Notes under the pieces: model-generated
Seen by the model: only the letters and a program-made list of their open reading frames with translations
The model's database searches: none
What the model was told of the DNA's origin: nothing
Made by a program: the position numbers and the translations under genes
Assembly (NCBI GenBank): GCA_032718475.1
Contig: JAUCBJ010008823.1
Span: 1 to 64,000, forward strand
Direction of reading: 5' to 3'
DNA from: Nemertoderma westbladi
Taxonomy: Eukaryota; Animalia; Xenacoelomorpha
Length of the DNA stretch: 64,000 bases
Shown: positions 21,761-63,170 of the stretch, piece by piece
Layout of the letters: the number at the start of each line of letters is the position of its first letter
Numbering within the stretch: the stretch's first letter is position 1

Positions 21761-21865
21761 TTATTCAATGGTAGACAGAATGGCGCCATTGAATAACGAA
21801 GACAAAGGGGCCGCGAGAGGAAAGATTATAAAGTTAACGATAAGGGATCTATAAACCATAGAGCT

Positions 21866-41236: not shown

Positions 41237-41358
41237 GTCAGTTTACTTAGATTTATTTTAACTATTAGTGCTGCAGCTGCACAAATTACACATGTTACCT
41301 ATTTACTCAGCATTTCTTCCTAGGAATCCCCTTATGATTAATAGTTTAGTTTAGTTAA

Positions 41359-41729
41359 CTAAATAAGTCATTGAGGGCTATAGCGCCTAGGGCACCATTG
41401 AAGGCAAAGGCTTGATACGCATCTGCATTAGAGATGATACACGCCCCGCCCTGTCTATACTGGATGCTCCTCTACCAGTGTTAGGTAACCTAACCCAGGA
41501 GGCCACTTGGTTCATGGTGTAACAAATGGACCCCTACAGTCGGCAGCAGGGCTGTAGGCCGTGGATAGGCGGAAGGTAATCAACCAACGGCTAGACATGC
41601 TGACAAGGTCGGCGGAAGGTAATCAACCAACGGCGATCCACTGCGAAGACGCTTGTAGGAGTTGCGACCACAAGCGGTTTACTCCCGCAACTGAAAGATA
41701 TTGTCCGAGTTCGCTCGACCTAGTAGTAG
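41359..41729 (+). mobile_element. ~370-bp SINE-like / non-LTR retroposon fragment with (TAG)n tail
   Basis: 12-bp TSD TAGTTTAGTTAA (41347-41358 and 41730-41741); 3' (TAG)n tail; internal duplication GGCGGAAGGTAATCAACCAACGGC. Confidence 0.6.
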
Positions 41730-42678
41730 TAGTTTAGTTAATAGTAAACGTTAAAAAAACAGTTTTGGAAGGAGACCACCACAAGGCTCACGGCACTTAC
41801 AGTGTAGGTTAGAGTAAAATAGTACTTTATTAAGACAAACATTTACAATACAATACAATTATATAAAATACGATCTCTCACGGACGAAGTAAATAACGGT
41901 CAATAAAATAAAGTAAAAAAAAGTGCTCTAAAAAATGTAGGTCAGTAAAATGCAAATATTGTAGATACTGTAGTTCTTGGGTTATTTATCGGAACAATAA
42001 CAATGAGGTAGTTAAAAAAATTCCTGAGCCACGACGAGTAATTAAATCGCATTTAAGTAAAACGAAAGGCAGTGACTTAAAAAGTTGTTTAGTCAGTTTT
42101 ACCACCCAGCTGCTTATCACTCTCGGGTTCCCGATTTTCGGGACCGGGATTGCAATTTTGGATTAAATTCCTTAAAGTTATTATTATATGTGGCGGGTTT
42201 TGGGTAACACTCACTTTATCTTAAAGTCCTAAAATATTAGTAAGATAAAGTTATATTAAAATTATTTTGCAATTGATTACTGGATGGTTTACTGACATAA
42301 AAATTATTTCTAATATATAAATTTCCGTTCTGTTGGAACTATTTATCAGATTGTTCAAGAAATTTACTTTCAACTATCTTCCGGATCCCGGCCCAAATAA
42401 GTTGGGATCGGGATCGGAACCGGGTTTGCTTTTTTTGCCGCGATCCCGGTTTTTCGGGATCGGGATCCTGTTTAAACTAGTCTCTATACCAACAAATCGT
42501 TCTAATGGCTTTACTAAACTTAGAGAAGCATTAGTTTGCGAAATAAAGAAGTTAGTTTAATTGGCGCGGGAAACAGTATACTGTAAACATAATTCCTATT
42601 TATTCCATGTTCTTAATTTTAATTATTATTCTATTCATGTTCTAAGGGAGATTGAAAGAAACTTTTATTACCTCACAG

Positions 42679-43769
42679 GTTCCGAGGTTCTCCTCAGGGT
42701 GGCGCTGGCGATTTGGGCGCGATTGGGCGAGCGAATCATCGTCGTCCAATCAGCTGATGAGTTCTACTCGATCATGGGGGTTCTGGCCAATGAGATGCTC
42801 CATCTTAACCTAATGCCTGGGGAGGAACTCTTGCACACGATCTACAACATGGCGGGATTCCCTTATCCAACGCTAAACGAGCTGCGCGAGAAGTACACGT
42901 ACAATATAACTCCTTTTAGTAACAAACGGAGCAGTCAATCGGCAACCGTTGCCGCGTCTACCACCGTTGCTAAGCAGCACGCGGAGTTAGCGGAAGACGA
43001 TTTGATGGTTTCGTGTTTCGCCGGTATGCTACTCCCCGGGTTCGGTCGGAGCGCGCCAAGCAGACCGGAGACAGCGCGCAACGCGGACGCCGCCGACGTC
43101 GGACAGGCGAGTCCGGGGGCGTACGCCTCCAGCGGCGAGAGTGTGAGCGAGAGAACCGCGCCGATGGAACGCATGAGCACCGATATAAACGCCCTGCAGA
43201 AACAGTACGGGAAGATACAGAAGCGACAACGTCAAGTGCAGGTCTGCTACGATAAGCGGAACAACGATTGGGTTGCCGCCAGTAGGTTTCCCGATCGGGC
43301 TAGCCGGTTGCCAGATCGGGTTAATTTGTTGCAGCATCGGGGTAATACGATGCCGGATCGGGCAGACTCTGGGAGTCCTCTAAACGCGTCGCTCGCCGTC
43401 AATCATTTGTTTTTAGGGAATAGGGTGCGTAGCAACGGCGAGATAAAAATGCGTTGCGCCACTATCGATTACTCGAATAATGTTCTCAACCATCTCAAAC
43501 TCAAAGCGCCGGTCAGCGTGGAGTCGTTGAACGCCGCGAAACGAACGCGATGGAAAGGCGACGGGGACGAGTCAACGAGACGGCGACACTCCGCTAGTCG
43601 GCGTGCACAGAGAGGCAATAAAGAGGGTTGCTCGGCAACCGATAAGGTCTCTACAGACCCCAACAGAAACCCCGGTCGTTCCTTGTCTTTAGCTATTAAA
43701 TACACGCAACTCAAACCCAATATTAAACCCAATATCGGTATTAATGGCCTCCCCTACTTTAATAGTTAA
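42679..43769 (+). CDS. TBC1D30: TBC1D30-like last coding exon
   Basis: CCTCACAG acceptor; G-SEVLLRVALAIWARLGE...ADEFYSIMG...LREKYTYNITPF...ERMSTDINALQKQY; stop at 43767-43769. Confidence 0.92.
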
Positions 43770-43787
43770 TCATCGGGATACAGGATA

Positions 43788-45828
43788 CTAAACTTTAGCT
43801 ATGCTAACACTGAACTTTAGCTATGCTAACACTGAACTTTAGCTATGTCATCACTGAACTTTAGCTATGTCATCACTGAACTTTAGCTATGCTAACACTA
43901 AACTTTAGCTATGTTATCACTGAACTTTAGCTATGCTAACACTGAACTTTAGCTATGTTATCACTGAACTTTAGCTATGTTATCACTGAACTTTAGCTAT
44001 GCTAACACTGAACTTTAGCTATGTTATCACTGAACTTTAGCTATGTTATCACTGAACTTTAGCTATGCTATCACTGAACTTTAGCTATGCTAACACTGAA
44101 CTTTAGCTATGCTAACACTGAACTTTAGCTATTTTATCACTGAACTTTAGGTATGCTATCACTGAACTTTAGCTATGCTAACACTGAACTTTAGCTATGC
44201 TAACACTGAACTTTAGCTATTTTATCACTGAACTTTAGCTATGCTATCACTGAACTTTAGCTATGCTAACACTGAACTTTAGCTATGCTAACACAAACTT
44301 TAGCTATGTTATCACTGAACTTTAGCTATGCTATCTCTAAACGTTAGCTATGCTAACACTGAACTTCAGCTATGCTAACACTGAACTTTAGCTATGTTAT
44401 CACTGAACTTTAGCTATGTTATCACTGAACTTTAGCTATGCTATCACTGAACTTTAGCTATGCTAACACTGAACTTTAGCTATGCTAACACTGAACTTTA
44501 GCTATTTTATCACTGAACTTTAGCTATGTTATAACTGAACTTTAGCTATGCTATCACTGAACTTTAGCTATGCTAACACTGAACTTTAGCTATGCTAACA
44601 CTGAACTTTAGCTATTTTATCACTGAACTTTAGCTATGCTAACACTGAACTTTAGCTATTTTATCACTGAACTTTAGCTATGCTATCACTGAACTTTAGC
44701 TATGCTAACACTGAACTTTAGCTATGCTAACACAAACTTTAGCTATGTTATCACTGAACTTTAGCTATGTTATCACTGAACTTTAGCTATGCTAACACTG
44801 AACTTTAGCTATTTTATCACTGAACTTTAGCTATGCTATCACTGAACTTTAGCTATGCTATCACTGAACTTTAGCTATGCTAACACTGAACTTTAGCTAT
44901 TTTATCACTGAACTTTAGCTATGCTATCACTGAACTTTAGCTATGCTATCACTGAACTTTAGCTATGCTACCACTGAACTTTAGCTATGCTAACACTAAA
45001 CTTTAGCTATGTTATCACTGAACTTTAGCTATGTTATCACTGAACTTTAGCTATGCTAACACTGAACTTTAGCTATGCTAACACTGAACTTTAGCTATGC
45101 TATTACTGAACTTTAGCTATGCTACCACTGAACTTTAGCTATGTCATCACTGAACTTTAGCTATGCTAACACTAAACTTTAGCTATGTTATCACTGAACT
45201 TTTGCTATGCTAACACTGAACGTTAGCTATGCTAACACTAAACTTTAGCTATGCTAACACTAAACTTTAGCTATGTTATCACTGAACTTTAGCTATGCTA
45301 ATACTGAACTTTAGCTATGCTAACACTAAACTTTAGCTATGCTAACACTAAACTTTAGCTATGTTATCACTGAACTTTAGCTATGCTAACACTAAACTTT
45401 AGCTATGCTATCGCTGAACTTTAGCTATGCTAACACTGAACTTTAGCTATGCTAACACTGAACTTTAGCTATGCTAACACTGAACTTTAGCTATGTTATC
45501 ACTGAACTTTAGCCATGCTATCACTGAACTTTAGCTATGCTAACACTGAACTTTAGCTATGCTAACACTGAACTTTAGCTATGTTATCACTGAACTTTTA
45601 GCTATGTTATCACTGAACTTTAGCTATGCTATCACTGAACTTTAGCTATGCTAACACTGAACTTTAGCTATGTTATCACTGAACTTTAGCTATTTTATCA
45701 CTGAACTTTAGCTATGCTATCACTGAACTTTAGCTATGCTAACACTGAACTTTAGCTATGCTAATACTGAACTTTAGCCAAGCTAACACTGAACTTTAGC
45801 TATGCTAACACTGAACTTTAGCTATGTT
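43788..45828. repeat. 20-bp satellite, about 100 copies, starting about 20 nt after the stop codon
   Basis: Unit ACTGAACTTTAGCTATGCTAAC-type with TTATC/CTATC variants; period 20. Confidence 0.97.
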
Positions 45829-47885
45829 AATTTAATATTGTCTTTAGCTACGTAACTCTTTCTCCTACTATAGGGAATCTTATAGTATATTATTATGTCA
45901 CTAAAAAAAATAATTTAATCACATTATTAATTTATGAAATTTACATACTATTTAATTTAATTAATTAAATCACCAAATTAATTATTCATGTATTTATAAT
46001 TTTTATTATGTGGCGTAAAGGTATGGAATATGTATAATGTCCTAGCGGTGCCCCCCCCCCCCCCCGCCCCCCATCTATTGATTTTTATTTCACAATTACA
46101 GTAGAAATTAATATTTACAGTATTTACTAAAAATTTAAAATTAATAGGCTGAAAAATTTCACTCATGGCTAATTATTATAACGAAGGATTTAAATTTAAA
46201 ACTATTGAAAGACAAACGTAGATGTTAAAAAAATTAATAAAATATGTAATAAATAATATATTTATATTAAAAATACAGTTCCCGCTTCTTTATTTCCTGC
46301 TGATGCTAACGAGACGTTACTTTCTTTAAACTTCAAAGGTACAAATTTCCAGTCTTTAGTTCCCGCATCCGTTATTTAACATTTTAATTTCAACTTGGAT
46401 CGTTTATGATTAAGAAATATATTAACCTCGGTTAGACAAGGTAGCATTTATATTATTTGGTTTTGCAGTAAAGTCTTCAAGGAATGAGGATTAAGCAACG
46501 GCGTTTCATTGTTTATAAATATCCTTCTTTTGATTGAGTATATTTGAAGAGACAGTAACAATACCTGCAATATCTTACTGTAAAGTTTGTGAATCAAATC
46601 ATAAATCCGACCTTCTCACCAAAACAGTAAACTCCAAGTAAGCGACTATATTGCAGTATCGATCTCTTATAACCGGTGAGGCAGAAAACAGTCTACGAGC
46701 AGACAAACTTCGATAAAACAAAATCCCGCGCAGCGAATCCTAAAATCAGGCTGACTCACTGACGGACTAAGAGGCTCGTATACTTTGCCGCGGTGTGATT
46801 TATATGGTTGGGCAAAAGAGACGCTAGCTAGGTGCAGAGATTTGGAGATGTCTAACTAGCGGGCAAAGCGCAGTACGGACAAAAGTTAAATTTTATATAT
46901 TTTGAGGTGTAAATAATTTCTAACGCGCGCGTGTGTTAATTCTAAACGGTCAAAGCAGTTTTGCTCCTTCATATATATAATTACTGGGTACGGTGTGCAT
47001 TTTACAAATATTCTAATTTTGTAACTTGTAGGTCCAATACTCACGAATGATAAGGCTCCTTCCCCTCTTGCGTATTTCCAGGACTCAAATTCAGGCATAA
47101 GGTTAATGCTACGCCCAGAATTCGGCAATTTTAATTTACCAGGCCCCTAATACTAAGAAGAAATGTGTTAGTTTACTACAGTAGGCGTACTGTTACTAAT
47201 AGCTAGCCTGGCGTCCTATCTAGAATTTTGGTTACCTAGGTGGGCTTGGTAACTTCCTATCAGGACGTTGGCGGGGACACGGTAGATGTTAGTATATCCC
47301 TAATAGCCTCAATTTATTTGCGCCTAGTCGTAAACTGCCCTACCGCCTGAACGGTACAATCCCAATTCAGGTGAAACACAGCAACCCTCCTGGCCTACAA
47401 GTTCTAATGCAATGGACACCGTTGTACTACAAATAGTCGCAAACGCACCTGTACTTAGCAAGAGTTAGGCGTACAGTTTGCTGCACCCTACCAATGTGTA
47501 TGCTTTGTACCGGTGTGCCTACGTCCTATCTGCGTACTAGTATCTCTGCCTGCTCTCCCCCCCCCCGTAGGAATATGAAGGTCTACTGCGGTTTTTTCCT
47601 GAATTAAAACGGTACAGTCCCTAAGATGTAATTTTAGGCTTACAGCGTGTCACTACTTCTACCTTTGATCTTTGGTCTTACGCTTAGGTAGCAAGGCATC
47701 GAACGCTGTCTAACCTTTCAGGCGATGGGCGAATAACTAAGATGGTATTGCGGGTTGTCTCCTGTCTACATTCCCTTGATGTTCCCGTTCATTGCTGCGG
47801 CCCGATCTCTAGCCGGCCATCCTGTTCCTAAGTGTGTTCACCGTAGTGAATCATGGTGAAAAGAAAATGCAGGTAGCGGTATTTC

Positions 47886-48190
47886 TGAATTTATTGCAGA
47901 TAATAATACAAAATGTAATCTGAAAACTAATGACAGAATAAACAAATATCAGATAACTCAGAATAATTGTGTAAGTGAAGAGTTAAGATTGAGAGATTGA
48001 GAAGTTGAGAGATTGATAACTAATGAACGAATCGCACCTTTATATAGCAAATTTGTGCTGCAATCAATCGAGAAAATTCTCGATTGTTCTATAGGTTCTA
48101 ACAGGTTTTTAAAGATAGCTATTGGTCCAGCTAATATATAACTTGCACGACATTGGTTACAATCTAATAACTGCAGTCTCATTGGTTAAT
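47886..48190 (-). promoter_or_regulatory. LTR-like promoter and polyadenylation block
   Basis: On the - strand: three ACCAAT boxes (about 48185, 48156, 48125), TATATAAA (about 48046-48039), a pyrimidine-rich initiator region and AATAAA (about 47895-47890). Confidence 0.6.
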
Positions 48191-48264
48191 CTAGGTACAG
48201 ACAAATACAATTTAATTTGTAGCGGTCAATTTAAATGAGTTGAAATTCTGTACAAAATATAATT

Positions 48265-48338
48265 CGCACTTACTAGGATTCGAACTCAATACACACTACA
48301 TATAATTTCCAACGCTCTACCGACTGAGCTACTGAACC
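48265..48338 (-). pseudogene. tRNA-like Pol III unit (A and B boxes, non-pairing acceptor and anticodon stems)
   Basis: GGTTCAG-TAGCTCAGTCGGTAGAGCG...GAGTTCGAATCCTAG on the - strand. Confidence 0.55.
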
Positions 48339-50029
48339 ACTTGAACAATAGGCGTACAAATAGATATAGTAAATACAAATGAGGACTTAATGTAATCTTT
48401 AATAAAGTTAATTCGAATAAAATAAAATTTTGAAAATCCACGGCATTTAGGGAATATAATTCTATACCACTCCATGAAAACAGGATATTATCGTGCATAA
48501 AATATACGGTTTTCACCAATAATCAATCAAACTATAGAATACTTAGGGCGTACTTACGTATTTACAAATTAAATTTCAAACAATACTTCCTTTCTACATA
48601 ATGATTCGATACAAAAATAATTACAAATTCAAACTTTACATATTTGAGGCTTTACTAAGTAAGTACAATATAAATCTAAATTAAATTCACCAATATAAAT
48701 CTATTGCATCTCAATATTGCATAAATTCAAATAATTACAAATACTTTCGTGCCTAAATGTAGATTGCATAAGTTCGGAATAATTACAAATATGAGTCTTT
48801 CTAAGCACAAAACTTTCTAACTATAAAACTTTCTAAATACAAAATATAACACTTTACAAATGAAACTATAAGAAAGGCCCACGAGTCTTCCATCTACTCT
48901 TACTTTCTATTTCACTGTAAATACAAATACTGCTTATAAGATATAAATTGCATAGTATTCGGAACAATATAAATTGCATAAGTTCGGAATAATCACAAAT
49001 ATAAAATAATAATCTTGCAAAATATAAATTCTTACTAAATATAAGTCTTACTAAATATAAATCTTACTAAATATAAATCTTACTAAATATGAGTTTTCCA
49101 GAATACAAAACTTACTAAATATAAAACATATAATTCAAATAAATCACAAATTCACAAGAAAGGCTCACGAGTCTTCCGTCCACCCTTGCCCTCCCTTTTA
49201 TCGCTTAGTTGATCGAGCCCTGCCGCGTCCTCGAAAACTGCGCACAGGGGACTTTGCTCGCGATATGGGACTCGTGGGGCGAGTCACTGGTTTCGCTTGG
49301 ACGTTGAGAGACGGTGCGACTATTTCCTCGCAAATTCGTCTATTTGGCATCCCAAAACCTCGACCGATTCCTCGTGACCGATCAGTTGTCACTACAGTTG
49401 GTAGAACGTCTGGGAACGCGCGGGAAGCGGACGACGCAGACCCAAGAGTAGCTTGCGCCCCCTTTTGATCAGCTGGTGTATGTCCCGATCCTCCTGTTGG
49501 TTCTCTAGGAAGCGATACCGTATCCCGAGTAATTCGAATGGTCGGCTCAGCTCCCTTGCGTTCTTCTATATTAATAGACTTCTTTAACTGTTGGCCCACT
49601 TTCTGGACCCGTATGATCCTACCCTGTCCGTCCTCCCGAGGGTGACGTGCAGACGGCGCAACCGGAGTGGCTGATATATTTGTCGCCTCTAGGACCTCCT
49701 CTTCCTCGAATACGCTCGCTCGTATACGTTTGTGGTAAAACGCGGCTCGGTACGCCCATGCGACGGTTAACCAAGCTCCTTTATTCCGCTTCTCAGTTCG
49801 GAAACGATCGAATTCACCATACGTGATGCGATTAACGACTTTCTGAAAATTCCACGTGTTTTTGTTATCCGGGTGAATCTGTAATAGATACTCGCGCACT
49901 ACTCAGAATCCACTGTCGTGGGGCAAAATATCGACTACCTCGATAAGTTCGTCATATTGGGGCATAGCGGAGATGTATGGTGGCCGACTGCTGCCACATA
50001 AACCATCAATGTCTAATAAAAATAATCGG

Positions 50030-50240
50030 TTAAAAAATCAATAAAAAAATTCAATAAAAAAAATTTCAATAAAAAATTTCAATAAAAAATTAAATAAAAA
50101 AAATTTCAATAAAAAAAATTAAAAAAAAATTCAATAAAAAAAATTCAATAAAAAAATTCAATAAAAAAAAATTCAATAAAAAAAATTACAAAAAAATTCA
50201 ATAAAAAAATTCAATAAAATAAATTCAATAAAAAAATATG
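50030..50240. repeat. A-rich degenerate microsatellite (TTCAATAAAAAAA)n inside the IS3EU-like element
   Basis: About 15 copies of TTCAAT(A)n. Confidence 0.9.
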
Positions 50241-50662
50241 TTAAATTTTTTTCTGAAACCCACCGTGGCCTACAGCTGCCAGGTATTCATTTAATACTAA
50301 CCACTGCAGTTATATTATACTGTATAGGTGGCAGTACTCGGCCACAGCGAAATAGAAAAAAAAATTGCAAAGTAAAATTGAATTCACACGTGGCCGACTG
50401 CTGCCAAATACTTTCAAACACATGGAAACATGGCCTACAGCTGCCAAAATGTGTATTTCCTGCAGTATCATTAACTAACATACTGTTTTGCTGTACCGGT
50501 AGGCTTCCAGTATCCTGTAGTTCGAGATTAGTTTCAGTATTCCGGTACTGAAATTCAAGCTACGAGCCTACATCAGTAGGCCTACATACAAATCTTGTAG
50601 GTACAATGCGGCAGCAGTGATCAGGCCCGGGACGGTAGGTAATTTAAGGGTTTCTGCTAATA

Positions 50663-51345
50663 ATGGCATGGAATAGTGATTATGGTTTAAAATCATTTCT
50701 CAGTGAAGCTGTTGCGCAAAATTGGTCTAGAAAAGAGTTGCTGCCTGCAGCAAAATCTAAATTTGGTCAGTATCCTTGGTCAATGAGAAGTTTGGATCGG
50801 CGTCTGAAGTTTTTTGAAATCAGTTACATCAATTATAATGTTGATATTCAAACTATTCGCAAGGCTTTAAAGAAGGAGATGGAGGGTCCTGGAAAACATT
50901 TAGGATATAGAGCCATGAATTTGAAGCTTCGCACTGTTTACAATATATGTGTTCCTCGTGATATTGTATATGAAATAATGAGAGAAGAGTACCCGGATGT
51001 GCTGGAAAAACGACGACTAGAAAACCGTAAACGGGTCCGCACTGGAGCTTTCAATTCAAAGGGCAGAAGGGTCCTTTGTGGTTAGTATCCGGGGATGGGC
51101 ACGATAAATTGTGCGGTTATCAGAACTCAACATTCAGCTACTGTATTTATGGTTTCCAAGATTCGTATTCAAGAAAATTATTACTGCTGAGAGTTATGAA
51201 GTCAAACTCCTGTCCTAAGGTTATTTCGCGACTGTATATTGAATTGATTACTACTTTGCAGTATTGCATGCCTGTTTTTCTTCGATTTGATAAAGGGACT
51301 GAAACAACAACAATGGCGATAATGCATTCTTATTTGCATTCGATA
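50663..51345 (+). pseudogene. IS3EU-type DDE transposase (HTH + integrase core), frameshifted and truncated
   Basis: SMRSLDRRL, GPGKHLGYRAM..KLR, VPRD.VY, GDGHDKL, IYGFQDSYSRK, LRFDKGTE. Confidence 0.8.
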
Positions 51346-54300
51346 AGTAGTAGGAGAAGCATAGCCCTCGGCCAACTCCTCCCTAGCCTGGGCTACGGGC
51401 CACATCTCAGAGGGCTATTAAAAATGCCAAATTTCGGTGCTAAATTGCGGTGTTTAATGACCATCTGTCACCAACAGTATTGATGCCTTCAACCAATCGC
51501 TGCGTATCACCTACGCGTAGCCTAACCTCACGATGCCTACCTTACTCGACAACTGTTACCACTCGCGAGTATTGATTCGCGTCGTTGCATCAACCAACCA
51601 TCGCATATTCATCTTCGCGTACCCAAACTTCTCATCGCATGGCTAGCCCCCACTATGCTATTATATCGAATCGATTACCAACTCACCACGGCTACTCTTC
51701 GACGGCTGTCACCAAACCAACCAACCGAGCGGCCTACCAGTCCAGCAGTAGGATACGTGTTGAAATTCCGCCACGTTTCCGGCTACACGTATACGAACAT
51801 TTCCATAGTTATTTCCTATCCATGCAACCAACCACTGTATACTGTATATGCAGACAACGTGGCCACCAACTACACGCATCACGCATATATTATATTGATT
51901 GCCAACTCCACAACTGCTGTCGCCAAATCAACCAACCAAGCAGTATGATACATGAGATTCCATCACGTTCTAGCTACGTGTATACGAGCATTAGTGATTA
52001 TTACGCAATAATTTTTTTTGTTTATACAGTAGTTACCCACCAGCTAATCAACCAATCAATAAACCGAATTTAGGCTATTTTCCAGTTTAAGACCTGTATT
52101 ATTTTTGAAAATATCTTATATATAATCTCTTGCTTTAATAGAGATGTATCCTTCCGACATCATCGTTTGGGGATTTACCGCCCAAAATCCAAGATGCGCC
52201 CTCATCGGAAATCGTCTTCTTTGTGCCGATACATGTTCGTCGGCTAAATCTTCCCACTCATCGAATAATTTTCTCACGAGTTTTACAGATTCGTGTTCAT
52301 AGGGTATGTCTCTTAGTTGGCATTCAGATGCTCGATGCCCTTTTATATTGCAATAAGTACATTGAGCCATAAATCTCCAGCAAGTATAAAAGGTATGAGA
52401 CCCTTGATCTCCACACCATCCACAGATTAGCTGAGTCGTAGTAATGTGCTTTCCACTGCACTTGGTCGAATGATGTCCAGCGACGCCACATTTACCACAC
52501 ATCGTATTGGCAGGGTACCACACTCGTTCGTATATAAGATCTCCAATCGGTCGAGCGCTTCCTCCCACACTATAATCGTAATCATCTGGATCTATGGGTT
52601 GGTAGGTTTCTGAGGGTTGTATACAAACTATAGCATCTGTTGCTTCAAGTTGTCGAATCTCCGTCTGAGATTTCTTCGGGAGGTTCCTTTCTATCTCAAG
52701 AAGTTCCTCTAAAGGATCGTCAGTGATCGTAGTAGTTACTTCGAAATCATCACCAAGGTGACCGATAGGCGCGCGCGTCTGCCGTGATTCATCCGTAATC
52801 TCCACGATACGTTCTCCTTCATAGGGTAACAATGTAAACATAGATGGTCTTTCGATAAGAGATCCCGCACAGCGAAGATACACGTCTCGAAATATACTAA
52901 ATCCTGCTCGAGTAAAGGCATTACACTGAGCGTCGGAGTTGTAGAAGGGTTCAAGGAATCGTCTAAACACGTCGGTATGAATTCTCCCTTCCATGTAGAA
53001 CGTATGATCTTCTCCGAGACAAAGTGGATGTCTTTTGAGAGTCCGAGACACAATGTCGGCGATTAGGCAAACATTCACTGACGACTCTATTGCTAAATAA
53101 TATTGTAGGACCGCTCTTGGAGGTGACGTAATAGCCCAATACACGCATCCTCTCCATTTAAGCTGTGATTCAAACTCACTCATATCTGGAGTATCACCTT
53201 CTCCATAAGTCTCAATATACTTGGTTCTCTTACTTTCCTTATAATCCCAATTGAATAACAGGTAGGAAATGTATCCAGTTCCAGTCTTCTGAGTATTATA
53301 CTCACGAAAATATCCCTGTTCTATAGACCACAAAATAAGAGGTCGAGTGTCGACGTAAGGTGTCGGTAGTCGGTCATCGCTGTCCGTCATGCCGGCGAAG
53401 TCGCTAATTAAGTCCTCCCTTACTCCTGATCCAATCTTTACAACAGTTTTATCTAAAATCATGTTTCTTACCATCTTCGGTAGCATTCTAGCGTCGATAT
53501 TACAAGCTTGGTCCATCTTCTTTACTATGTCAGTGATAAGATGGTGTCGCTTTGTATTCGCTGGAGGTATCGGCATTCGTTTGTCGCTCCTCTGTCTACT
53601 GAAAATGTGCAGGACTCCGTCCGCCGCTCTAATCTGTACAGTCTTAGAAGTCAAACTCTGTTGATGACTGCCGCCCTCGTTATCGTAAAACATGTAACCA
53701 TTTTCCTGAAACGATCTAAACGTCCTATTCCATTTATCCAACAATTCTTCCGAAGGTTGCCAAATCTTCTCTATGTCCTTATCATCTTCGAAACGAATAA
53801 CCTTACCTCGCCAATCCGCGGCAATGTCTGTATCCGACTCGAAGGTTCCGGTTCCAATCCATAAACGAATCGTCTTGGTTAAATATCCTTTCAAATTACT
53901 CGGAGCTATATCGGCACCAGCTCTATCCAGTTCCTTAAAGTCTTGAATATGAGGTGGAACGTTGTACACGACCTTTTGAGTAATATGTCTACGTAAATCA
54001 TATATCTTACTCATATCGCTGAAAACAACTGCAGGAAGAAACTCCAAGTTTGAAATGATTTCTGGATGATCCACGATGGGTATTTCGTACGTCGTATCCT
54101 GTCGGACTGGTATACTAATAGGAAAATTGAGTGTCGTACTCAATGGTTTCGTAGTCGAAGTACTATATGGTTGCATTTCTCTTGTCCTCTCCGGGGATGC
54201 AATCTGTAGTCTCTGAATAACGTTTTGAGCAAAGTTTATGCTCTCGAAAACTTCCGGTGTCATCTCCTTAGCTGGGGTTTGATCGTGTGACGTCCAATGG

Positions 54301-55742
54301 TAAGGTAGGCTCGCGAGTCTTCCGCCCCATTCTTCCATCTCACCTTTCTCGAAAGCCTTGTAGGCTCTGTATAGGCTAAGAGCTTCTTTCTTTTCGCGGG
54401 TTGACTGATTTGCCTCGTCCAGCGTAAGTTCAAATACATCGGGTTCAACAACCTTAGGTGGGTAAACGACAGTTTCTCCCGCCTTTGGTCCGGTCATAGC
54501 AAATGAATGATATGGATTCTATAAAGGATACCCTCCTTCCTGGTAGCGTAGTTGTTGATGGTTCGAACACCTCGCCAATATCGGTTCGGGATTTTCCTTA
54601 TTCAAACGCATCGGAATCGCATTTCGTTGTTCGCGCATACAAGAACCGCATTGATAATAAAGTTTATAAACTGAAAATGCTTCCTTGGTTTCTCTATCGT
54701 CTGTAAAGGTGCATTCCATCGAATTCATCGCGTACCGCGGGCATAGGTTCGTGCGCCTTCAGGTATTGCATGGTATGATACAAACGACTAATTTCAGTAT
54801 CGGGGTCTTCGCTAATGTCTCCCGTATCACACAAAGCGTCGTACGGGTACAGTTCATTGAAGGTTTTGCGCAAACTTTCGATTCTTTCATTTAATGCGTT
54901 TTGTCTTCTCTTTAATACATTTGAGTCATATTTAGTTCTCGCGAGTTTCGCTGTACTTTCTGATAATTCTTTTATACCAAATATAGTGTAGTCCTTGGCT
55001 CCAAATCTTTCGAATGGTGCTGCTGCCTCCTCTTGGATATCATATCCCCATCTCGGCTCTCCTTGTATCCCCTTTTCCATAATTAGAGGTGTAGTTACAT
55101 AATCATTACTACTAGAGGGAATACAACAGAGTTTGTAGTTAGTTGTGAGGAGACGTGAGAGTTTCGTCTGCCCTTTTGGCTCGACAACGCTCTAACCTCC
55201 TACCCATAGCCTAAGATCTAGGGTTTCTTTAATGACACGCTGCTTCTTATCTAAAATTTTTTGCCGAAATAAAAAACGAATTTGGGCTAAACTGGCTGTG
55301 AGTCTAAAATACTCACCTTTTGATCCCAAACTATTATCAGAAAATAAGCAATCAAGAATTAGTAATAAATATAGGGGAGTCTATTTATTGACGTAACTTA
55401 TTGAAACAAGACCGTGTAAAATTTAATTAAAATTTTAAGAAAGGCTCGCAAGTCTTCCTCTCTTGTTTCTCTAATTTTAAGTTCCACCCGACTGTACCCT
55501 GAAATCTATTCACTGGAGAAAATTTTAAAATTTTTCAAATCCAAATGGATTGTCTAAAATTTCGAAAATGTCTCAATATTGTGAGTTCCAAGTAGAATTC
55601 CATTTCTTATACCTACAAATCCCGCTCCTATGTGACACATAAGGGTACTACCCTCAATGTTCACATATAAAAGACAATGGAATTCTACCGCTGTCCTTAC
55701 TACGGTGTACAGGTACGTGGAAATCTATTTGTAAACTCCTAA

Positions 55743-58700
55743 TTATTTACTAATATTAGTTGGAGATTTGTAGTCTCCAGACTCGTTACGAGTCTCTTCA
55801 AGAAGTACGAGACGTTGAGTCGGTCTGTCTACTGTACGACCGTCAATTGTCCGTACCGTTACATTTCTTGTCACTCCATCCATAGATGGATGTGTGTCTA
55901 AAATTACACCTGTTATCCAGAAGCGTCTTTTTAGATTCACTTCTGCTAACAGCACGTGATCTCCCGGCTTTAATGCGCGGGTGTTATTGTACCAGTTTGT
56001 TCTGGCAGAAATAGAGGGCAAATAATGGTTTTGCCATATTTCCCAGAATTTGTTAGCTAGTAGTTGCGTGATTTTCCACGCTTTTCTACCGTAGCTATCG
56101 CCTTCCATTGGAATAGAAATAGGCGTCAAAGTTGTCGGTGCCTGCATAAGCAGGTGTGCCGGTGTCAAAGCAAACTGAGATTGTTTGTCATCGGGTACTA
56201 ATACTATTGGTCTAGTATTTAGTATTGCCTCGATTTCAACAAACAGTGTTGTCAGTTGGTCGTCTGTCAATATGTGGTTTACTGGAATGACCTTTGCCAT
56301 TGCCGTTTTGATAGATCTAATCAATCTCTCCCAGACTCCGCCTCTCCATGGACTATCTGGAGGATTAAACTTCCAAACAATCTTGTAAGGATGTAGTTCG
56401 TTTGAGATTTGATCATGATCTAATTTCTTAAAGGCTCTAGCAATCTCATTTCGAGCACCAACAAAGTTTGTCCCTTGGTCTGAGTACAAGCACTTCACTA
56501 GTCCGCGTCTAGCGATAAATCGCCGCAATGCTAGTATAAACGCGTTGGTGGAAAGATCCATCACACGTTCAATATGAACTGCCCTACTGGACATACATGT
56601 GAAAATCAGTCCCCAGCGTTTTACTAGTATACGTCCACGTTTCGTATGTATGGGACCAAAGCAATCAATTCCAGTCTCTGTAAAAGGTGGTCTGAATGCT
56701 TGAAGTCGTGCTTGTGGAAGTTCACTCATTTCTTGGGTACCTATTCTAGAATGTACCTTTTTACAAATAATACACGTACGTGTCACTGAACTTAACGCTT
56801 TACTGGGTCTAATTAATACAAATCTTGTACGTAAGTAGGAAAGACAGTGGTGTCTTCCAGCGTGTTTCAGATGTAAATGTGCGTCCAGTATCATTGCACG
56901 TTGTAGTTCGTGATGCTGTGGTATTATTATTGGGTATCTAAAGTTTGTGTTAAAGTCAATGTTTTGAAGCCGAGATTTATGACAAATTAAGCCATTATAA
57001 ATAATCGGACTCCAACTCAGTATTGGTGACGACTTGATTGGTTGACCTTGATTTATAGATGTGAATTCGCGCGCGAAATATCGCAGTTGGTAATGGCGAA
57101 TTAATTTAATTTCACACCTGTCAATCTCAGCCAATGTAAGCCGACGTGTAAAGTCTCGTTTGCCTTTAACGTATTGTACAAAACGTACAATCCACGCTAA
57201 TTTTCGGCAAGCGTTTGTCCAAGAGTCTGTTAAGTTTACAATACGGTCGACGTGAGTATTTGTGACGTCATCAGGTAAGTCAATGGAGAATTTGGAAGGT
57301 TTTGATTTACTAGAAGGGCCCACGGGTCCGCCGGTAAGTATTCCCTTGTTGACTGTTGATCCGTCCGGGTCTACAAGTAATTTGTCCTTCTTCGTCTTCT
57401 TACCTTGGTTGTCAGTACTTTGTAAGTCGATCGTTAATGGTGGTTTGAACTCTATGGGGTCAGTGGGTTTCGGTAAACTTATTTTTCTGCCGATATTAAT
57501 CCCGGGTCTCACCATAGGTTGCAAGTTTGGTATGTCTCTTGAGCGCAAAGTAACACCTGTATTTACAATAGCGTAGGTACTACCCACATCTGTAATACAT
57601 GAGGTTTCACCGTGCTTATGGTTGCTCAAGTGTGTCAAAATTGGTAGTTTGTCAATACAAGGCCGCTCCAATAGGGAAACTGCGGCTTTACTATTTGTCA
57701 ATATGTTACTAGTGTCTGGTAGAACATTTTGTGACATGTCTGGTAAAATGTTTCGCGGAACATCCGGCGAAATATCTAGTGATGTGTCTGGCAAAACGTC
57801 TGGTTGACCGTCTAGTAACGTATCTGGTTGTTTGTCAATAGAAGGCCGCTCCAATAGAGAAACTGCGGCTTTACTATTTGTCAGTATGTCACTAGTGTCT
57901 GGTAGAACATTTTGTGACATGTCTGGCAAAATGTCTGGTTGAACGTCTGGTAATGTGTCTGTTTGACCGTCTGGCGATATGTCTGGTGTAGAAAGGCTCG
58001 TAAGTCTTCCGTTCTTGACCTTTGAAGTTATCGCTTTCCATTTCGCCTTCGGTTTTTTCTTGAGTTTAGCCGCCGTCCTTTTCTTTGCTTTCCCTTTCTT
58101 TGGTTTTTTAATTTCCGCGTCTTTAGGGATATTGTTAGACTTGTTGTCGTATAGTGGCGGCCAATGTTGTATTGATCCCTGCAAGAACCGTGGTCCGTGC
58201 TGCCAAAATTCTTTGTTCTCCGGTTTACAGAATTCCTCAGGCATCATTCCTCGCGACGCAATATCGGCTGGGTTTTGTGGTCCGGGACAATGTCGCCAAT
58301 CTTCTTTTATTGAACGGTCTAGAATTTCCGCGCGACGGTTAGCTACGAATGTCTTGAATTCAAGTATGTCGTTGTTTATGTAAAATAAAACCAACGTCGC
58401 GTCAGTCCAATAAAATATCTGTAAACTTGACTGTAGTTCTGTCTGTATAAGGTTCACAATTGTGGTTGACAGGGTTGCGGCTTGTAGCTCAGCTCGTGGT
58501 GTCGTCATATACTTAGTAGGCATTGTTTTTGCCTTAGAAGTAATGAGCGAAACATCGAATTCTTCTGAGTCTACTTGTCTGCGCAAGTACGCTGCCACAC
58601 CAAAGCCGTTGTCACTGGCGTCGGAAAAACAATGTAATTCCAAGTTGTCAGGAAATGTTGTTTGTAATGGAAAGTATACTCTGGGTATGGAATAATCCTC

Positions 58701-61700
58701 TAACGAAGATAATTCTGCCTCCCAGGTTTTCCATAAGTCCACTTGGTCTGATGAGATCGGCTCGTCCCATGTTAGTCCATCCTTCCAAATACTGCGCATA
58801 TAAATTCTGGCTTGCAGTATTATTGGACTGATGAATCCTAATGGATCGAACAATCGGCTCAATTTTGACAAGCATGATCTCTTTGTCAGTGTGTTTTCTT
58901 GACTGTCCAGTCTCACCTTCACTCGAAAGTTGTCCGTGTTTGGGTCCCAAAAGAGCCCCAACACCTTGGTCGTCGGTAGTGGTTCGAACTCTAGGTCTAT
59001 GTCACCACCTCCACGCTCAGTCGTTCCGAATGAGTCTACTAATTCGGCACTGTTTGAGGCGAATTTGGTGAGGTTGAAACCTCCGCCCGCTAAGCAGTCC
59101 CGTAATTGATGTGCTACTGTTATAGCACGTTCTACTGTGTCACAACTCTGTAAACCGTCGTCGACGTAAAAGTCACGTTCCACAATCTTAATTATCTCTG
59201 GGTCATACATGTGTTTCTGATCCCTAGCGGCTTGCTTTAGGGCGTACATCGTACAGTTTGGGCTGTCCCTGGCACCGAAAACGCGAACTTGCATTTGGTA
59301 AGTCGCCGGTGGTAGACTTAAGTCTCCTTCCGGGTACCAGAGGAACCTCAAACTGTCTCTGTCTCGCTCTAACGCTCTCACTTGGTGAAACATAGCTTCG
59401 ACGTCGCAAGTAAAAGCTACTTGACGCTGACGGAAGCGCATAATCACCCCCATAAGATAATTATTCATGTTTGGTCCATCCATCAACTCGCTATTGAGGG
59501 ACATTCCCTCAAACAGAGCCGCACAGTCATTGACTACACGTACTTTGTCTGGTTTGTCGGGGTGTCTCACGAAGTGATGTGGCAAGTAGTATGTTTGGTC
59601 AGTCACTATCTCCGGGTTAGTCATTCGGATAGCGTATCCCTTGGACAAATACGTCTCCATCTGAGTGTTATACTGCAGATGGGCTTTCTCGTCCTTTAAT
59701 AGACGTTGTCGTATTGAGTGTAGTCGTCTTAAAGCTAGTGGATAGTTATTTATAAGTTTAGGACTTTGGCTACGCCATAACATCCCTACCTCATAATGTC
59801 CGTCTTTCGTCTGGCGGATAGTATCTTCCATGATCTTCAAAGATTGTTTCTCCTGTTCCGACATACATGGTTCGTAGCTACCAGGTTCAGCTGTATCTTG
59901 TTCTAACCACCTGATAGTCTTCTCCGTTAATTCTTTGTCCAGTGCAGCTTGTTCCACTTGATGATTTCTTAACGCGTCATCATCGATATCGACGGGTATT
60001 GTTGAGGTTATTGGGGTAGGTAGACTCGCAAGCCTTCCGGCGTTATCATCTGTCGTCGATGGAATCTCTGGCTGACTCGTCTTCTCCCCAAGTTCTAAAC
60101 TCACCTGGTTGATTAGCTGCTCCTTGTGACTTATCATACTAGTTACACATCTGTCATGTTTTGTCAAATGTAGTGTAGTATGGTCCACGTCGTGTGAAAA
60201 GGAATGAATTGAATTTGTAGTTAATAAACTACATGTACTTTGTACATCGTCTTCCTCGTCACTTATGTCTAGTGTGCGCACAGGCGCTCGAGTATACCAC
60301 CCTATCGGTGTTCTACAGGCGTATGCGTTTCCCGCTACGACTGCCGATGGTCTGGTTTCCCACACTTGATGTAGGTTGAATTGGTCTGTCCCGATCAGCA
60401 TGGCTACCGATCTATAATTGACAGGACATTCAGGTACACCAAGGTGTCTGAAATACTTACGGTCCTCCAAGGATTGTTCTGGGACAGGACCTAGTAGGTT
60501 ACTAAAGTCCTTGGTGGCCGCAAAAGTCAAATCCTTAAAGGGTAACAAAGACCTCTCCTTTTCGCTGTGTTGCGATTTCGGAAGAAGAGTGTCTAAGTTT
60601 AACTTAACTCGTGTCACTGGTATTGCACGTTGTCCGTGCATACTACTTACGGTGTAACTGACGCGCTTACCTTGTCTGAGATCCGTCACGACATCAGCTA
60701 TCTGCTCATCCACGTAGCTGTGAGATGAGGCTGAATCCAGGATAGCGTAGATTCTCTTGCTCCCTTTTGTGCCAGTAATCTTAATCGGAATTACACTGAA
60801 ACCCTTTAGTTGGTCAGTCGTCAGAAGCGCGATCGATGGTTGTTCGTCTCCATCTGAATATACGTCGTCGTCTTCCGACTCTTCGTCCGACGATCCGGAT
60901 TGTTCTGAGAAGCAATCCTTAATATGTGTCACGAAGGTTGGAGTCATTTTCGATTCTCGATTCTTGTAGGCCGTATTACATTTCGCTGCTGCTTCCGGGT
61001 GTTCCCTGGCGAAGCGTTTTGTCGGCGTGTGGCTGTCTGTGTGGAGCAGACCGTCGTGGTTGCGTCCACAGGATGGACAAGTGTCGGTATTTGGGCAATC
61101 TTTGCGGACGTGTCCGTGTCGCGTACACCGCCAACAAGAGTCCAATGGTCGTATCTGCAGCCGTCGTTCTTCCGAGTTTAACTCGCGAAACTGTCGACAA
61201 CCTCTCAACTTGTGACCGATATACCGCTTGCCTAAATGCTCGCAGTATTGGCAGCTGCTGAAGTCTGTACTGAGTTGCTGTCTAGTCTGTTTTATTCCAA
61301 TGGGCGCGGATACCCTACTACCGTCCGAGAATTGTCGTGTTTCCGTCAGTGTGGCGTAAGTGGCCGTCTTGGTGGATGTTGTCTGGGGTTTTTGTCGGTT
61401 TGAGGATGGCAAGGTGATTCCTTCTGCTATGATGTGCTGGTCAGTGTAGTTGGATCGAGTTTCTACCACTGCTTCCCTGGATATCAAAAGGTACACATCT
61501 TCCAGTTTTAAGAATCCACCCCGCTCTTCCCGCTGGTATTCGATCTTCCTCCACTCCCGACGAAGTCGATGGTGGAGTCGTCCTATGATCTTTAATAGGA
61601 CTGTAGGGGTATTCCCGTAGTCAAGTTGTCCAATGGATCTCAAAGTAGTGATAGCGTTCTTTATTTCGTCAGCCAGTTTCAATAAGTCGACGGGTTTAGT

Positions 61701-63170
61701 AATAGCCCCTCCCTTACAGAGTTCCTCTATCACTGACCTGGCCATGCTGACTGTACCTCCGTAGATCGAAGTTAAACGATCGTACGCTAGTTCGAAGGCG
61801 TCCGGTACACCAATGAAGGTCTCCGCCAAACGTTTAGGTTCTCCCGACAACGTTTGAAGCAGGTAATTAAACTTCTCCCGTGATGTAAAGGCGCACACGG
61901 CGATCTGAGATTCGATATAGTCTACGAAAGTGTGCCAGTGTTTTGAGCTACCGGAAAACTTAGGTGGTTGTTGCACCGGTAGTCCTTGTCTAGCTGCGAA
62001 TTTCGCTATTTCCTCGGCAACGTTCAGAGTTTCACGTCCTTGGTTGGTAATCTGGTTGATGTCCCTTCTTGGCGCTTTTCCCTGATACGAAGTATTGGTC
62101 GATGGTATTTGTCTTTGCAGAACCTTTGGGTTTCTATTGTGTTCGAATTCGGAATTTCTCGAACTGTCGGTGTGAACTTCCTCCAAGCGTTCCTCGATCT
62201 GGGCCAACTTGTTGACAACTGGTCGCAGAATGTCGGCAAACTGTTGTGAACTGATTGCGTCCGTTGGTTGTAACGCCTTCTGTGTTGGTGTATTTTGTGG
62301 AGGATTGTCTACAAAGGAGTTATCTGAACGCTCGCGTTTATATTCATCGGCCGCCCCTGTTCTAAATACCTCGCGTTTCGGGTAATCCGATTCGCTCGAA
62401 GTACTACTATCATCTGGATATGGTGGTCGACGTGCTCGCGTCCATTGCGTCGTACGAATTCTAACGTTTCGTTTCGGAACATCGTCCACTGTTCTCCGTT
62501 GTTCGGTAGGCTCACAAGTCTTCCTCGAAGTCGTAGATTGCGATGTAAACTGGTTGAACGGTCGCTTATCCACTGGTCTCCGTTGTTCGGTAGGCTCACA
62601 AGTCTTCCTCGAAGTCGTAGATTGCGATGTAAACTGGTTGAACGGTCGCGTATCCACTAGTCTCCGTTGTTCGGTAGGCTCACAAGTCTTCCTCGAAGTC
62701 GTAGATTGCGATGTAAACTGGTTGAACGGTCGCGTATCCACTGGTCTCCGTTGTTCGGTAGGCTCACAAGTCTTCCTCGAAGTCGTAGATTGCGATGTAA
62801 ACTGGTTGAACGGTGGTCGGACAACAGCGTTTGAATCCAAAGGCCTTGTAGGCCTAAACGTCATTGGGTACGTGTAGTGCGTAACGAGTTTTGGTGTCGA
62901 AGGTGGACTCACCTGTTTTGTCGTCAGTAGTGCAGGTCCAGTCAACAAACTACTACGATCTGTAATCGGTGGGTTACTTACCTTGACTTTCAAAATAGGC
63001 GACGACGTTGCTCTTGAATTTGTCCGGAATAACCAACCTGTGTTCCATCGCACCATGGATAGGAGAAATATCACTACTACCCGCAATCGAAACAGGTTCC
63101 TTAGTTGTAACTGGTGCGAACATAGGGGTTCACTTGTGTCTTTCTGGGCTCCTCCCCGAGGCGCACCCAC
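55743..63170 (-). CDS. BEL/Pao gag-pol polyprotein (Gag, Zn knuckles, aspartic protease, RT, RNase H, integrase); true start uncertain
   Basis: PPKFSG..HW.TF Gag; CWRCTRHGHVRKDC and CPSCGRNHDGLLH; LDSAS; YLPHH.V, SLN..LMDGP, DVEAMFHQV, FYVDD; FDPLG, FSDAS, PRAELQAA, NPADIASRG; H..H..C..C, GIDCFGP, SDQGTNF, GGVWERLI. Confidence 0.97.
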   Translation of the reverse strand: MGAPRGGAQKDTSEPLCSHQLQLRNLFRLRVVVIFLLSMVRWNTGWLFRTNSRATSSPILKVKVSNPPITDRSSLLTGPALLTTKQVSPPSTPKLVTHYTYPMTFRPTRPLDSNAVVRPPFNQFTSQSTTSRKTCEPTEQRRPVDTRPFNQFTSQSTTSRKTCEPTEQRRLVDTRPFNQFTSQSTTSRKTCEPTEQRRPVDKRPFNQFTSQSTTSRKTCEPTEQRRTVDDVPKRNVRIRTTQWTRARRPPYPDDSSTSSESDYPKREVFRTGAADEYKRERSDNSFVDNPPQNTPTQKALQPTDAISSQQFADILRPVVNKLAQIEERLEEVHTDSSRNSEFEHNRNPKVLQRQIPSTNTSYQGKAPRRDINQITNQGRETLNVAEEIAKFAARQGLPVQQPPKFSGSSKHWHTFVDYIESQIAVCAFTSREKFNYLLQTLSGEPKRLAETFIGVPDAFELAYDRLTSIYGGTVSMARSVIEELCKGGAITKPVDLLKLADEIKNAITTLRSIGQLDYGNTPTVLLKIIGRLHHRLRREWRKIEYQREERGGFLKLEDVYLLISREAVVETRSNYTDQHIIAEGITLPSSNRQKPQTTSTKTATYATLTETRQFSDGSRVSAPIGIKQTRQQLSTDFSSCQYCEHLGKRYIGHKLRGCRQFRELNSEERRLQIRPLDSCWRCTRHGHVRKDCPNTDTCPSCGRNHDGLLHTDSHTPTKRFAREHPEAAAKCNTAYKNRESKMTPTFVTHIKDCFSEQSGSSDEESEDDDVYSDGDEQPSIALLTTDQLKGFSVIPIKITGTKGSKRIYAILDSASSHSYVDEQIADVVTDLRQGKRVSYTVSSMHGQRAIPVTRVKLNLDTLLPKSQHSEKERSLLPFKDLTFAATKDFSNLLGPVPEQSLEDRKYFRHLGVPECPVNYRSVAMLIGTDQFNLHQVWETRPSAVVAGNAYACRTPIGWYTRAPVRTLDISDEEDDVQSTCSLLTTNSIHSFSHDVDHTTLHLTKHDRCVTSMISHKEQLINQVSLELGEKTSQPEIPSTTDDNAGRLASLPTPITSTIPVDIDDDALRNHQVEQAALDKELTEKTIRWLEQDTAEPGSYEPCMSEQEKQSLKIMEDTIRQTKDGHYEVGMLWRSQSPKLINNYPLALRRLHSIRQRLLKDEKAHLQYNTQMETYLSKGYAIRMTNPEIVTDQTYYLPHHFVRHPDKPDKVRVVNDCAALFEGMSLNSELMDGPNMNNYLMGVIMRFRQRQVAFTCDVEAMFHQVRALERDRDSLRFLWYPEGDLSLPPATYQMQVRVFGARDSPNCTMYALKQAARDQKHMYDPEIIKIVERDFYVDDGLQSCDTVERAITVAHQLRDCLAGGGFNLTKFASNSAELVDSFGTTERGGGDIDLEFEPLPTTKVLGLFWDPNTDNFRVKVRLDSQENTLTKRSCLSKLSRLFDPLGFISPIILQARIYMRSIWKDGLTWDEPISSDQVDLWKTWEAELSSLEDYSIPRVYFPLQTTFPDNLELHCFSDASDNGFGVAAYLRRQVDSEEFDVSLITSKAKTMPTKYMTTPRAELQAATLSTTIVNLIQTELQSSLQIFYWTDATLVLFYINNDILEFKTFVANRRAEILDRSIKEDWRHCPGPQNPADIASRGMMPEEFCKPENKEFWQHGPRFLQGSIQHWPPLYDNKSNNIPKDAEIKKPKKGKAKKRTAAKLKKKPKAKWKAITSKVKNGRLTSLSTPDISPDGQTDTLPDVQPDILPDMSQNVLPDTSDILTNSKAAVSLLERPSIDKQPDTLLDGQPDVLPDTSLDISPDVPRNILPDMSQNVLPDTSNILTNSKAAVSLLERPCIDKLPILTHLSNHKHGETSCITDVGSTYAIVNTGVTLRSRDIPNLQPMVRPGINIGRKISLPKPTDPIEFKPPLTIDLQSTDNQGKKTKKDKLLVDPDGSTVNKGILTGGPVGPSSKSKPSKFSIDLPDDVTNTHVDRIVNLTDSWTNACRKLAWIVRFVQYVKGKRDFTRRLTLAEIDRCEIKLIRHYQLRYFAREFTSINQGQPIKSSPILSWSPIIYNGLICHKSRLQNIDFNTNFRYPIIIPQHHELQRAMILDAHLHLKHAGRHHCLSYLRTRFVLIRPSKALSSVTRTCIICKKVHSRIGTQEMSELPQARLQAFRPPFTETGIDCFGPIHTKRGRILVKRWGLIFTCMSSRAVHIERVMDLSTNAFILALRRFIARRGLVKCLYSDQGTNFVGARNEIARAFKKLDHDQISNELHPYKIVWKFNPPDSPWRGGVWERLIRSIKTAMAKVIPVNHILTDDQLTTLFVEIEAILNTRPIVLVPDDKQSQFALTPAHLLMQAPTTLTPISIPMEGDSYGRKAWKITQLLANKFWEIWQNHYLPSISARTNWYNNTRALKPGDHVLLAEVNLKRRFWITGVILDTHPSMDGVTRNVTVRTIDGRTVDRPTQRLVLLEETRNESGDYKSPTNISK
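62488..62815 (-). repeat. 84-bp in-frame tandem repeat (about 4 copies) in the gag N-terminal region
   Basis: PFNQFTSQSTTSRKTCEPTEQRRPVDTR x4. Confidence 0.95.

Follow-up and report, generated by a model that had tools for sequence, protein, structure and literature searches.

The window analyzed here is a 64,000-nucleotide stretch of DNA from the xenacoelomorph Nemertoderma westbladi (GenBank assembly GCA_032718475.1, contig JAUCBJ010008823.1, positions 1 to 64,000 of the forward strand). Its minus strand carries a long terminal repeat (LTR) retrotransposon of the BEL/Pao superfamily, and behind pol lies the accessory gene that is the subject of this analysis. The gene is genuine and selected for, belongs to a BEL/Pao family with many copies, is interrupted in the window copy, and likely encodes a divergent DEDDy nuclease joined to an array of zinc knuckles. 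The gag-pol gene (55743-63215, minus strand) is a single open frame of 2,490 codons without a break. It matches the Pfam models Peptidase_A17 (E = 2.5e-42), DUF5641 (E = 2.3e-20), DUF1759 (E = 8.4e-11) and Integrase_H2C2 (E = 1.6e-4), with these domains at aa 420-557, 1444-1605, 2102-2156 and 2379-2472 and the integrase last. The reverse transcriptase region has 396 relatives at E ≤ 1e-50. The top relatives are 42-44% identical. Among the 396, the sources of the named proteins are sea urchins, sea cucumbers, a jellyfish, molluscs, tunicates and fish. One gag-pol with DUF1759, Peptidase_A17 and DUF5641 supports the assignment of the host element to the BEL/Pao LTR retrotransposons, and the Pao marker domains and reverse transcriptase relatives bear out the identity given in an earlier interpretation made from the DNA letters alone (the sequence-only reading).

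A candidate 3′ LTR is placed provisionally at 47820-48347 (minus strand), with TATAAA at 48044, AATAAA at 47895 and TG/ACA ends assigned by eye. Self-comparison found no second LTR copy inside the 64-kb window, and the 5′ end of the element lies beyond position 64000. Pol III A-box- and B-box-like motifs at 48331-48277 (minus strand) fall within the candidate LTR. This region has no match to tRNA or Rfam models, and the candidate readings are the head of a tRNA-derived short interspersed nuclear element or an LTR-internal promoter. The gag-pol frame contains in-frame repeats, with an 84-nt unit present ~4 times near the N-terminus (62485-62814) and, between RNase H and integrase, a segment that is duplicated with an offset of 183 nt (57642-57950).

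Three minus-strand frames are found 3′ of gag-pol, at 54694-55191 (165 codons), 52116-54518 (800 codons) and 49198-49902 (234 codons). When positions 46000-55740 were shuffled 200 times, no stop-free frame exceeded 193 codons, compared to the 800 observed. A spacer of ~660 nt (55081-55742, minus strand) separates the pol stop from the first Met in the upstream piece of the accessory gene. The main accessory open reading frame (ORF; 52147-54518, minus strand) runs for ~790 codons up to a 2,165-bp insertion, and residues of the accessory protein are numbered from position 54518. In the C-terminal piece (49198-49975, minus strand), 24 codons lead to a stop at 49903-49905, behind which lies the 234-codon frame. 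As the sequence-only reading had proposed, removing the insertion and one copy of the GAGATG duplication that flanks it joins the two sides in register, which by arithmetic gives a total of 1,049 codons with the stop at 49903-49905 as the only one. The 234-codon tail is basic and rich in Pro/Ser/Thr and Arg-Gly (43 Arg + Lys, 22 Asp + Glu, 8 RG/GR), and has no Pfam match. Two upstream pieces, which had been offered as possible parts of the gene, were also considered. A 70-codon piece at 54519-54731 (minus strand) is in the main-ORF frame and has one stop (54519-54521) at its end. The other piece (54694-55080, minus strand) is open in a frame that differs from the main ORF and is a probable N-terminal segment; it has the top codon score among the three frames, and 2/2 differences listed there between copies are synonymous. 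The protein predicted from these frames would be about 1,000-1,240 aa. There is no transmembrane-like stretch in any accessory piece (top 19-residue hydropathy in the main ORF, 1.38), and the gene is therefore not an env. A CxxC-x19-CxxH motif in 54522-54731 (minus strand) is possibly an extra zinc site in the N-terminal part of the protein. AT-rich degenerate repeats lie 3′ of the accessory gene (48700-49190), and length variants of them are frequent among copies.

Other copies of the family were sampled through contigs of public sequencing runs X1, X2, X4 and X5 aligned to the window. The nuclease stretch (53040-53760, 721 nt) was sampled in three runs from one organism and three studies, and one run may be the window's own source. 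The sequence-only reading had allowed that the ORF might be an unrelated insertion lacking from other copies, which is not what the contigs show: 483, 162 and 9 contigs in the three runs cover the nuclease stretch, with no indel row. Contigs only 83-84% identical to the window have 0 gaps in this stretch (X2 record 14, X1 record 6). Loose contig ends at 49978 in X1 (9 contigs) and X2 (6 contigs) continue with the sequence beyond the insertion, which indicates that other copies have an empty insertion site. At the stop codon 54519-54521, all depth differs from the window in X1 (15 contigs), X2 (10 contigs) and X4 (1 contig). This stop is thus private to the window copy, and the 70 codons upstream of it very probably belong to the accessory gene. 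The stop at 49903-49905 has no variant among the differences listed, though near-fixed differences at 49674 and 49792 are listed. This stop may be family-wide, and the protein would then end 24 residues past the insertion site. The frame change near 54700-54730 may likewise be shared by other copies.

Selection on the nuclease stretch was evaluated with the best 40 of 63 differences. A total of 27 of the 40 are synonymous, against the fraction of 0.33 that the most lenient null predicts (P = 8e-6). The sites are not mutually independent, and where two changes fall in one codon each is counted singly. Third positions account for 25 of the differences, 0 are stops, and the crude N/S of 0.24 agrees with the ratio below 1 that had been suggested as a check. 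The minority variants alone gave the same picture (16/24 synonymous, P = 7e-4). Further listed differences are synonymous in 7 of 9 cases in the rest of the main ORF and in 3 of 7 cases in the 234-codon tail. These results show that the accessory gene is a family gene that is present in many copies and under purifying selection. The synonymous excess means that the protein was useful to the element while the family spread.

Purifying selection also argues against the ORF being a passenger, that is, a captured host gene or a separate insertion that came to lie behind pol by chance. No cellular homolog was found among 1.84 billion representatives, and overlapping contigs in other runs extend from the pol end into the spacer (X4 record 23, X5 record 31), from the spacer to the start region (X4 record 22, X5 record 30) and across 53149-55021 (X4 record 21). 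Summed contig depths in X4, which are not copy numbers, are of the same order over the pol end (455-633) and the ORF (290-498). A passenger would be compatible with the finding that none of the contigs listed spans pol to the ORF, with 55021-55088 unbridged by the listed X4 records, and with a 5′ LTR outside the window. It would also be compatible with the copies that have internal deletions of the accessory gene, which show that the family is not uniform. Some copies lack the nuclease part and keep the knuckles, with joints that skip 2,018 nt (X1, X4) or 2,114 nt (X2), and one weak joint, with a side of 22 letters, leaves out the accessory gene entirely. Considering both sides, a passenger is highly improbable. 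Copies without the accessory gene appear able to exist, as expected of a trans-acting product. The nuclease-skipping deletion derivatives (52810-54941) carry short filler sequence.

The probable DEDDy 3′-5′ exonuclease domain is located at 53030-53780 (minus strand, aa ~247-496). The motifs reported earlier in this long same-strand ORF 3′ of pol were confirmed in position: the ExoI motif DNE with D279/E281 (53684-53676, aa 279), KIGSGVRED with ExoII D369 (53438-53412, starting at aa 361), and YLAIE with the ExoIII candidate E478 (53099-53085, aa 474), all on the minus strand, followed by three CCHC zinc knuckles. An Atlas language-model search with aa 270-500 returned PF01612 as the best named cluster (score 0.94, 174 shared features), and 29 of the 30 named matches were PF01612. 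Four other methods used a training set of 85 bacterial PF01612 domains (RNase D, NrnC, Pol I and 16 WRN-like). MAFFT places D279, E281, Q295 and D369 on invariant columns of the DEDDy alignment. A hidden Markov model (HMM) of the mixed 85 domains matches only aa 348-391 (ExoII) with 2.6 bits, a score reached by 6/2,000 shuffles and 0/228 real 800-aa pieces; for an earlier 69-sequence profile, 6/1,000 shuffles scored as high. A five-block motif chain scored 22.4 versus a shuffle mean of 5.2 (sd 4.3), was equaled by 0/300 shuffles and 1/228 real pieces, and selected D279, D369 and D390 with 17.8 bits in the ExoII block. Atlas, HMM, hhalign, MAFFT and the motif chain all pick out one and the same stretch, in a consistent order, and the latter four, which share one training set, count as approximately one line of evidence beside Atlas. 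An AlphaFold model built with 40 homologs cut before ExoIII (predicted local distance difference test (pLDDT), 65) has ExoI D279/E281 on model strand E29-35 and a long helix at aa 468-496 that includes E478, with Y474-x3-E478 at its start. Foldseek, a check put forward with the sequence-only reading, ranked EXD2 first for this model (E = 3e-4, TM 0.30, root mean square deviation ~20 Å) and then other DEDD nucleases; its viral matches are mostly Pol I and DnaQ-like exonucleases.

Several results weigh against a DEDDy assignment. Atlas without the filter has three unnamed clusters on top and PF01612 in 24 of 30 matches, and its error rates for parts of proteins were not measured. The WRN-like-only HMM is weak, with 35/2,000 shuffles and 4/228 controls scoring as high, and hhalign gave at best E = 0.003 and a probability of 10%. 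The spacing limits of the motif chain were set with the query known, its Q block is placed at 304 and not at 295, and it found no positive ExoIII site (E478, -7.6; D442, -11.5; best, -5.9 at 487). Y438-x3-D442 is formally a canonical ExoIII and the choice of MAFFT, but it has a lower motif score and lies in a low-confidence stretch of the model. Pfam gave no DEDDy match even at E ≤ 10, with zf-CCHC the only domain found in the accessory protein, and a PDB sequence search gave no DEDDy match. The search of the 1.84 billion representatives returned no real homolog, the single match being a C2-repeat protein, and the other protein and contig collections searched contained no accessory-protein homolog. 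A single-sequence structure model failed (pLDDT 32), the last helix of the AlphaFold model appears undocked, and the EXD2 match is partly circular in that the model was fed DEDDy homologs. The absence of a significant curated-profile or database match and the 1/228 real control pieces that beat the motif chain are what would be seen if the motifs were chance resemblances in an orphan knuckle protein without a DEDDy domain. The agreement of Atlas and the four training-set methods on stretch and order speaks against this explanation, which is improbable. The tests are individually weak but concordant, and a DEDDy fold of the WRN/EXD2 type is likely for the predicted protein. The exonuclease assignment made earlier is likely on concordant Atlas, profile and motif tests, and neither Pfam nor PDB nor the databases supplied a homolog. 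Given this fold, two-metal 3′-5′ activity with Glu478 as the fourth acidic residue is somewhat favored.

The zinc knuckles lie at 52320-52499 (minus strand; aa 674, 699 and 720) and have the spacings CX2CX4HX4C, CX2CX5HX4C and CX2CX4HX4C. The array matches Pfam zf-CCHC with E = 0.0041. Its PDB matches are all zinc-knuckle proteins (retroviral nucleocapsid, Air2 and TbRND, the Trypanosoma brucei RNase D), none of them significant, and Air2 and TbRND align across the entire array. An origin of the knuckles by copying from the element's own gag was ruled out by comparison with gag. The nuclease and knuckle stretch is uninterrupted in the window copy, which makes an in vitro test of activity and substrate direct.

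In the proposed mechanism, the knuckles would grip single-stranded RNA and the DEDDy domain would trim its 3′ end. The protein would work in trans in cytoplasmic RNA-protein particles, aided by its basic RG-rich tail. The preferred targets would be small RNAs or slicer products that derive from transcripts of the element itself and have unprotected 3′ ends, and silencing would be damped as a result. The probability that the selected accessory gene behind pol encodes a knuckle-guided 3′-5′ exoribonuclease acting in trans is placed at roughly 45%, with RNA as the substrate suggested by analogy with TbRND. Small-RNA or slicer-product 3′ ends as the target, with damping of silencing, is a doubtful extension of this mechanism, and trimming of the element's own RNA is about as likely as a small-RNA target. 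Mature PIWI-interacting RNAs (piRNAs) are 2′-O-methylated and resistant to such 3′-5′ enzymes. An anti-piRNA role would thus need precursors or slicer products as the target. Were the DEDDy enzyme, guided by its knuckles, to degrade or over-trim precursors of piRNAs directed at the element, it would be a retrotransposon-borne anti-silencing enzyme with the same fold as Nibbler/Mut-7 and EXD1, which serve hosts in piRNA production, and this is unlikely to be its role.

A DEDDy fold could be catalytically dead or weak, in which case the protein would bind RNA as an adaptor in the manner of Egalitarian, EXD1 or Maelstrom and would package or transport element RNA or place it in germ granules. The lack of a canonical ExoIII, with every candidate below zero, is consistent with an adaptor, as is the presence of Egalitarian among the Foldseek matches (ranks 18, 20 and 29). 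The knuckles and the basic RG-rich tail fit binding without cutting, and excerpts of PMC5408684 name Maelstrom and EXD1 as inactive DEDD derivatives. However, D279, E281 and D369 are all present and unchanged in the best 40 of 63 differences, the sole difference listed among these in the three codons (aa 369) is synonymous, and natural D-to-E variants occur in element DEDDy ORFs (DEED). An adaptor with little or no catalysis is on balance a less likely alternative. An active DNase would trim or proofread cDNA ends in reverse transcription or clear single-stranded cDNA by-products. The nearest fold and profile matches are of the WRN/EXD2 type, a group that includes DNases, and CCHC knuckles also bind single-stranded DNA. 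The Dada DNA transposons have a DEDDy domain with a proposed role in 3′-end processing, according to excerpts of PMC3706591. Against a DNase, the gene is separate and outside pol, and multi-knuckle nucleases of known substrate act on RNA (TbRND). A relative of the accessory gene was found in 0 of 72 other BEL loci, only 19 of which have at least 1 kb behind pol; the gene thus looks lineage-specific, and cDNA synthesis appears independent of it. A DNase is quite improbable, and the knuckle-guided exoribonuclease is retained as the working interpretation.

The insertion that interrupts the accessory gene in the window copy (49976-52140, 2,165 bp) is an IS3EU-like DNA transposon. It is flanked by the 6-bp duplication GAGATG (49970-49975 and 52141-52146), a direct repeat that can also be read as 9 nt, and contains a broken transposase piece at 50648-51483 (plus strand; Pfam rva_4, E = 1.2e-5). 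The definition used is that of fungal IS3EU families in excerpts of PMC12730594. The insertion starts with TATGG, which fits TAYGG, and the 6-bp duplication also fits the definition. CCRTA at the other end and terminal inverted repeats >30 bp were not found, the two ends sharing three letters only, and the insertion is therefore labeled only IS3EU-like. Summed contig depth in run X1 is 357-401 over 50487-51120 versus 34,000-44,000 over 51438-52071. With this uneven depth and two ends that do not match, the insertion looks composite.

The remainder of the window holds other repeats and genes. A ~15.8-kb element at 7010-22770 has 389-nt terminal inverted repeats that are 100% complementary and a protein-primed PolB at 9548-13469 in two overlapping frames (DNA_pol_B_2, E = 1e-19); we take it to be Polinton/Maverick-like. 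A 577-codon ORF at 19806-21539 has no Pfam match. Positions 26200-40300 consist of ~245 copies of a 57-bp tandem repeat that are 98-100% alike, and one minus-strand frame stays open for >1,000 codons at a time; this array is probably a satellite. A second tandem array at 43787-45830 is ~92% alike, with self-alignment offsets mostly in 88-nt steps (some 22). A 402-codon frame at 42561-43769 (plus strand) contains DUF4682 (E = 1.1e-7) and presumably represents exons of a host gene resembling TBC1D30.

A broader question is whether animal retrotransposons produce enzymes that counter small-RNA silencing. Among retroelements, the Juno, Vesta, TelKA and Mag clades are gypsy-like. The sequence-only reading knew of no described case of a DEDDy gene in the slot after pol; this did not hold, since excerpts of Rodriguez et al. 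2017 (PMC5408684) report DEDDy ORF3s with the motif DEED in the bdelloid Juno and Vesta LTR retrotransposons, where ORF3 is downstream of pol, and in the Athena/Terminon retroelements. The rotifer case is repeated in excerpts of two reviews (PMC6431247, PMC5718144), and excerpts of a 2019 paper (PMC6338049) describe the DnaQ-like domain as well known among the accessory domains that LTR elements carry. The excerpts of PMC5408684 already raise RNA 3′-end processing and a mut-7-like silencing role for ORF3, with function untested there. Like the ORF3 of Juno, Vesta and Athena, the gene described here is a separate same-strand ORF after pol in the env slot, is DEDDy-like and lacks a transmembrane segment. 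Both would have one D-to-E change, but the bdelloid motif is DEED, whereas here the third acidic residue aligns as D369 with E368 adjoining. The host here is BEL/Pao; the clades in those passages are Juno, Vesta, TelKA and Mag, and no BEL/Pao element is named in them. Three CCHC knuckles are present here within ~1,000-1,240 aa, whereas the same passages give knuckles only for gag/pol and Cys-His-Cys in two Vesta ORFs. They also describe no clear departure from neutrality for bdelloid ORF3, in contrast to the purifying selection seen here. None of the homolog searches returned the bdelloid Juno, Vesta or Athena ORF3 sequences.

The domain order resembles that of TbRND (PDB 7c42), an enzyme that acts on small RNAs and whose DEDDy domain binds and cleaves RNA far better with the C-terminal fingers (excerpts of PMC7797062). 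TbRND is a cellular enzyme of mitochondria, is ~350 aa long and has four fingers, and the similarity of the knuckle array to it is not significant (E = 9.5), which makes it a working analogy only. The predicted domain shares ExoI F/Y-D-x-E, ExoII K-x-G-x-G...D and a downstream D with the PF01612 group of EXD2, WRN-exo, Mut-7/Nibbler, EXD1 and Egalitarian. It departs from this group in having 12-21% identity to the aligned bacterial members, no canonical ExoIII, no Pfam-level score and insertions of ~30 residues before ExoII and probably also before ExoIII. In the Dada transposases, excerpts of PMC3706591 place the DEDDy 3′-5′ exonuclease domain within a DDE transposase with all four catalytic residues, whereas here it is a free-standing retrotransposon gene. 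The literature searched, with Repbase reports, subscription papers and supplements outside its scope, yielded neither a BEL/Pao example nor a DEDDy gene of any element joined to an array of knuckles. Should the domain prove inactive, or its substrate be nucleic acid of the element itself, the gene would be a useful but small entry among accessory genes. Should the anti-silencing role be true, the env slot would, together with the rotifer cases, be a repeatedly filled site for counter-defense nucleases across LTR superfamilies. With the present gene, the DEDDy ORF3s of the 2017 study reach a second LTR superfamily and gain an array of predicted RNA-binding knuckles. It also adds evidence of purifying selection, which excerpts of the rotifer study do not find. 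The BEL/Pao host element, the knuckle fusion and the predicted size of about 1,000-1,240 aa are new here, in what is otherwise a known kind of retrotransposon add-on.

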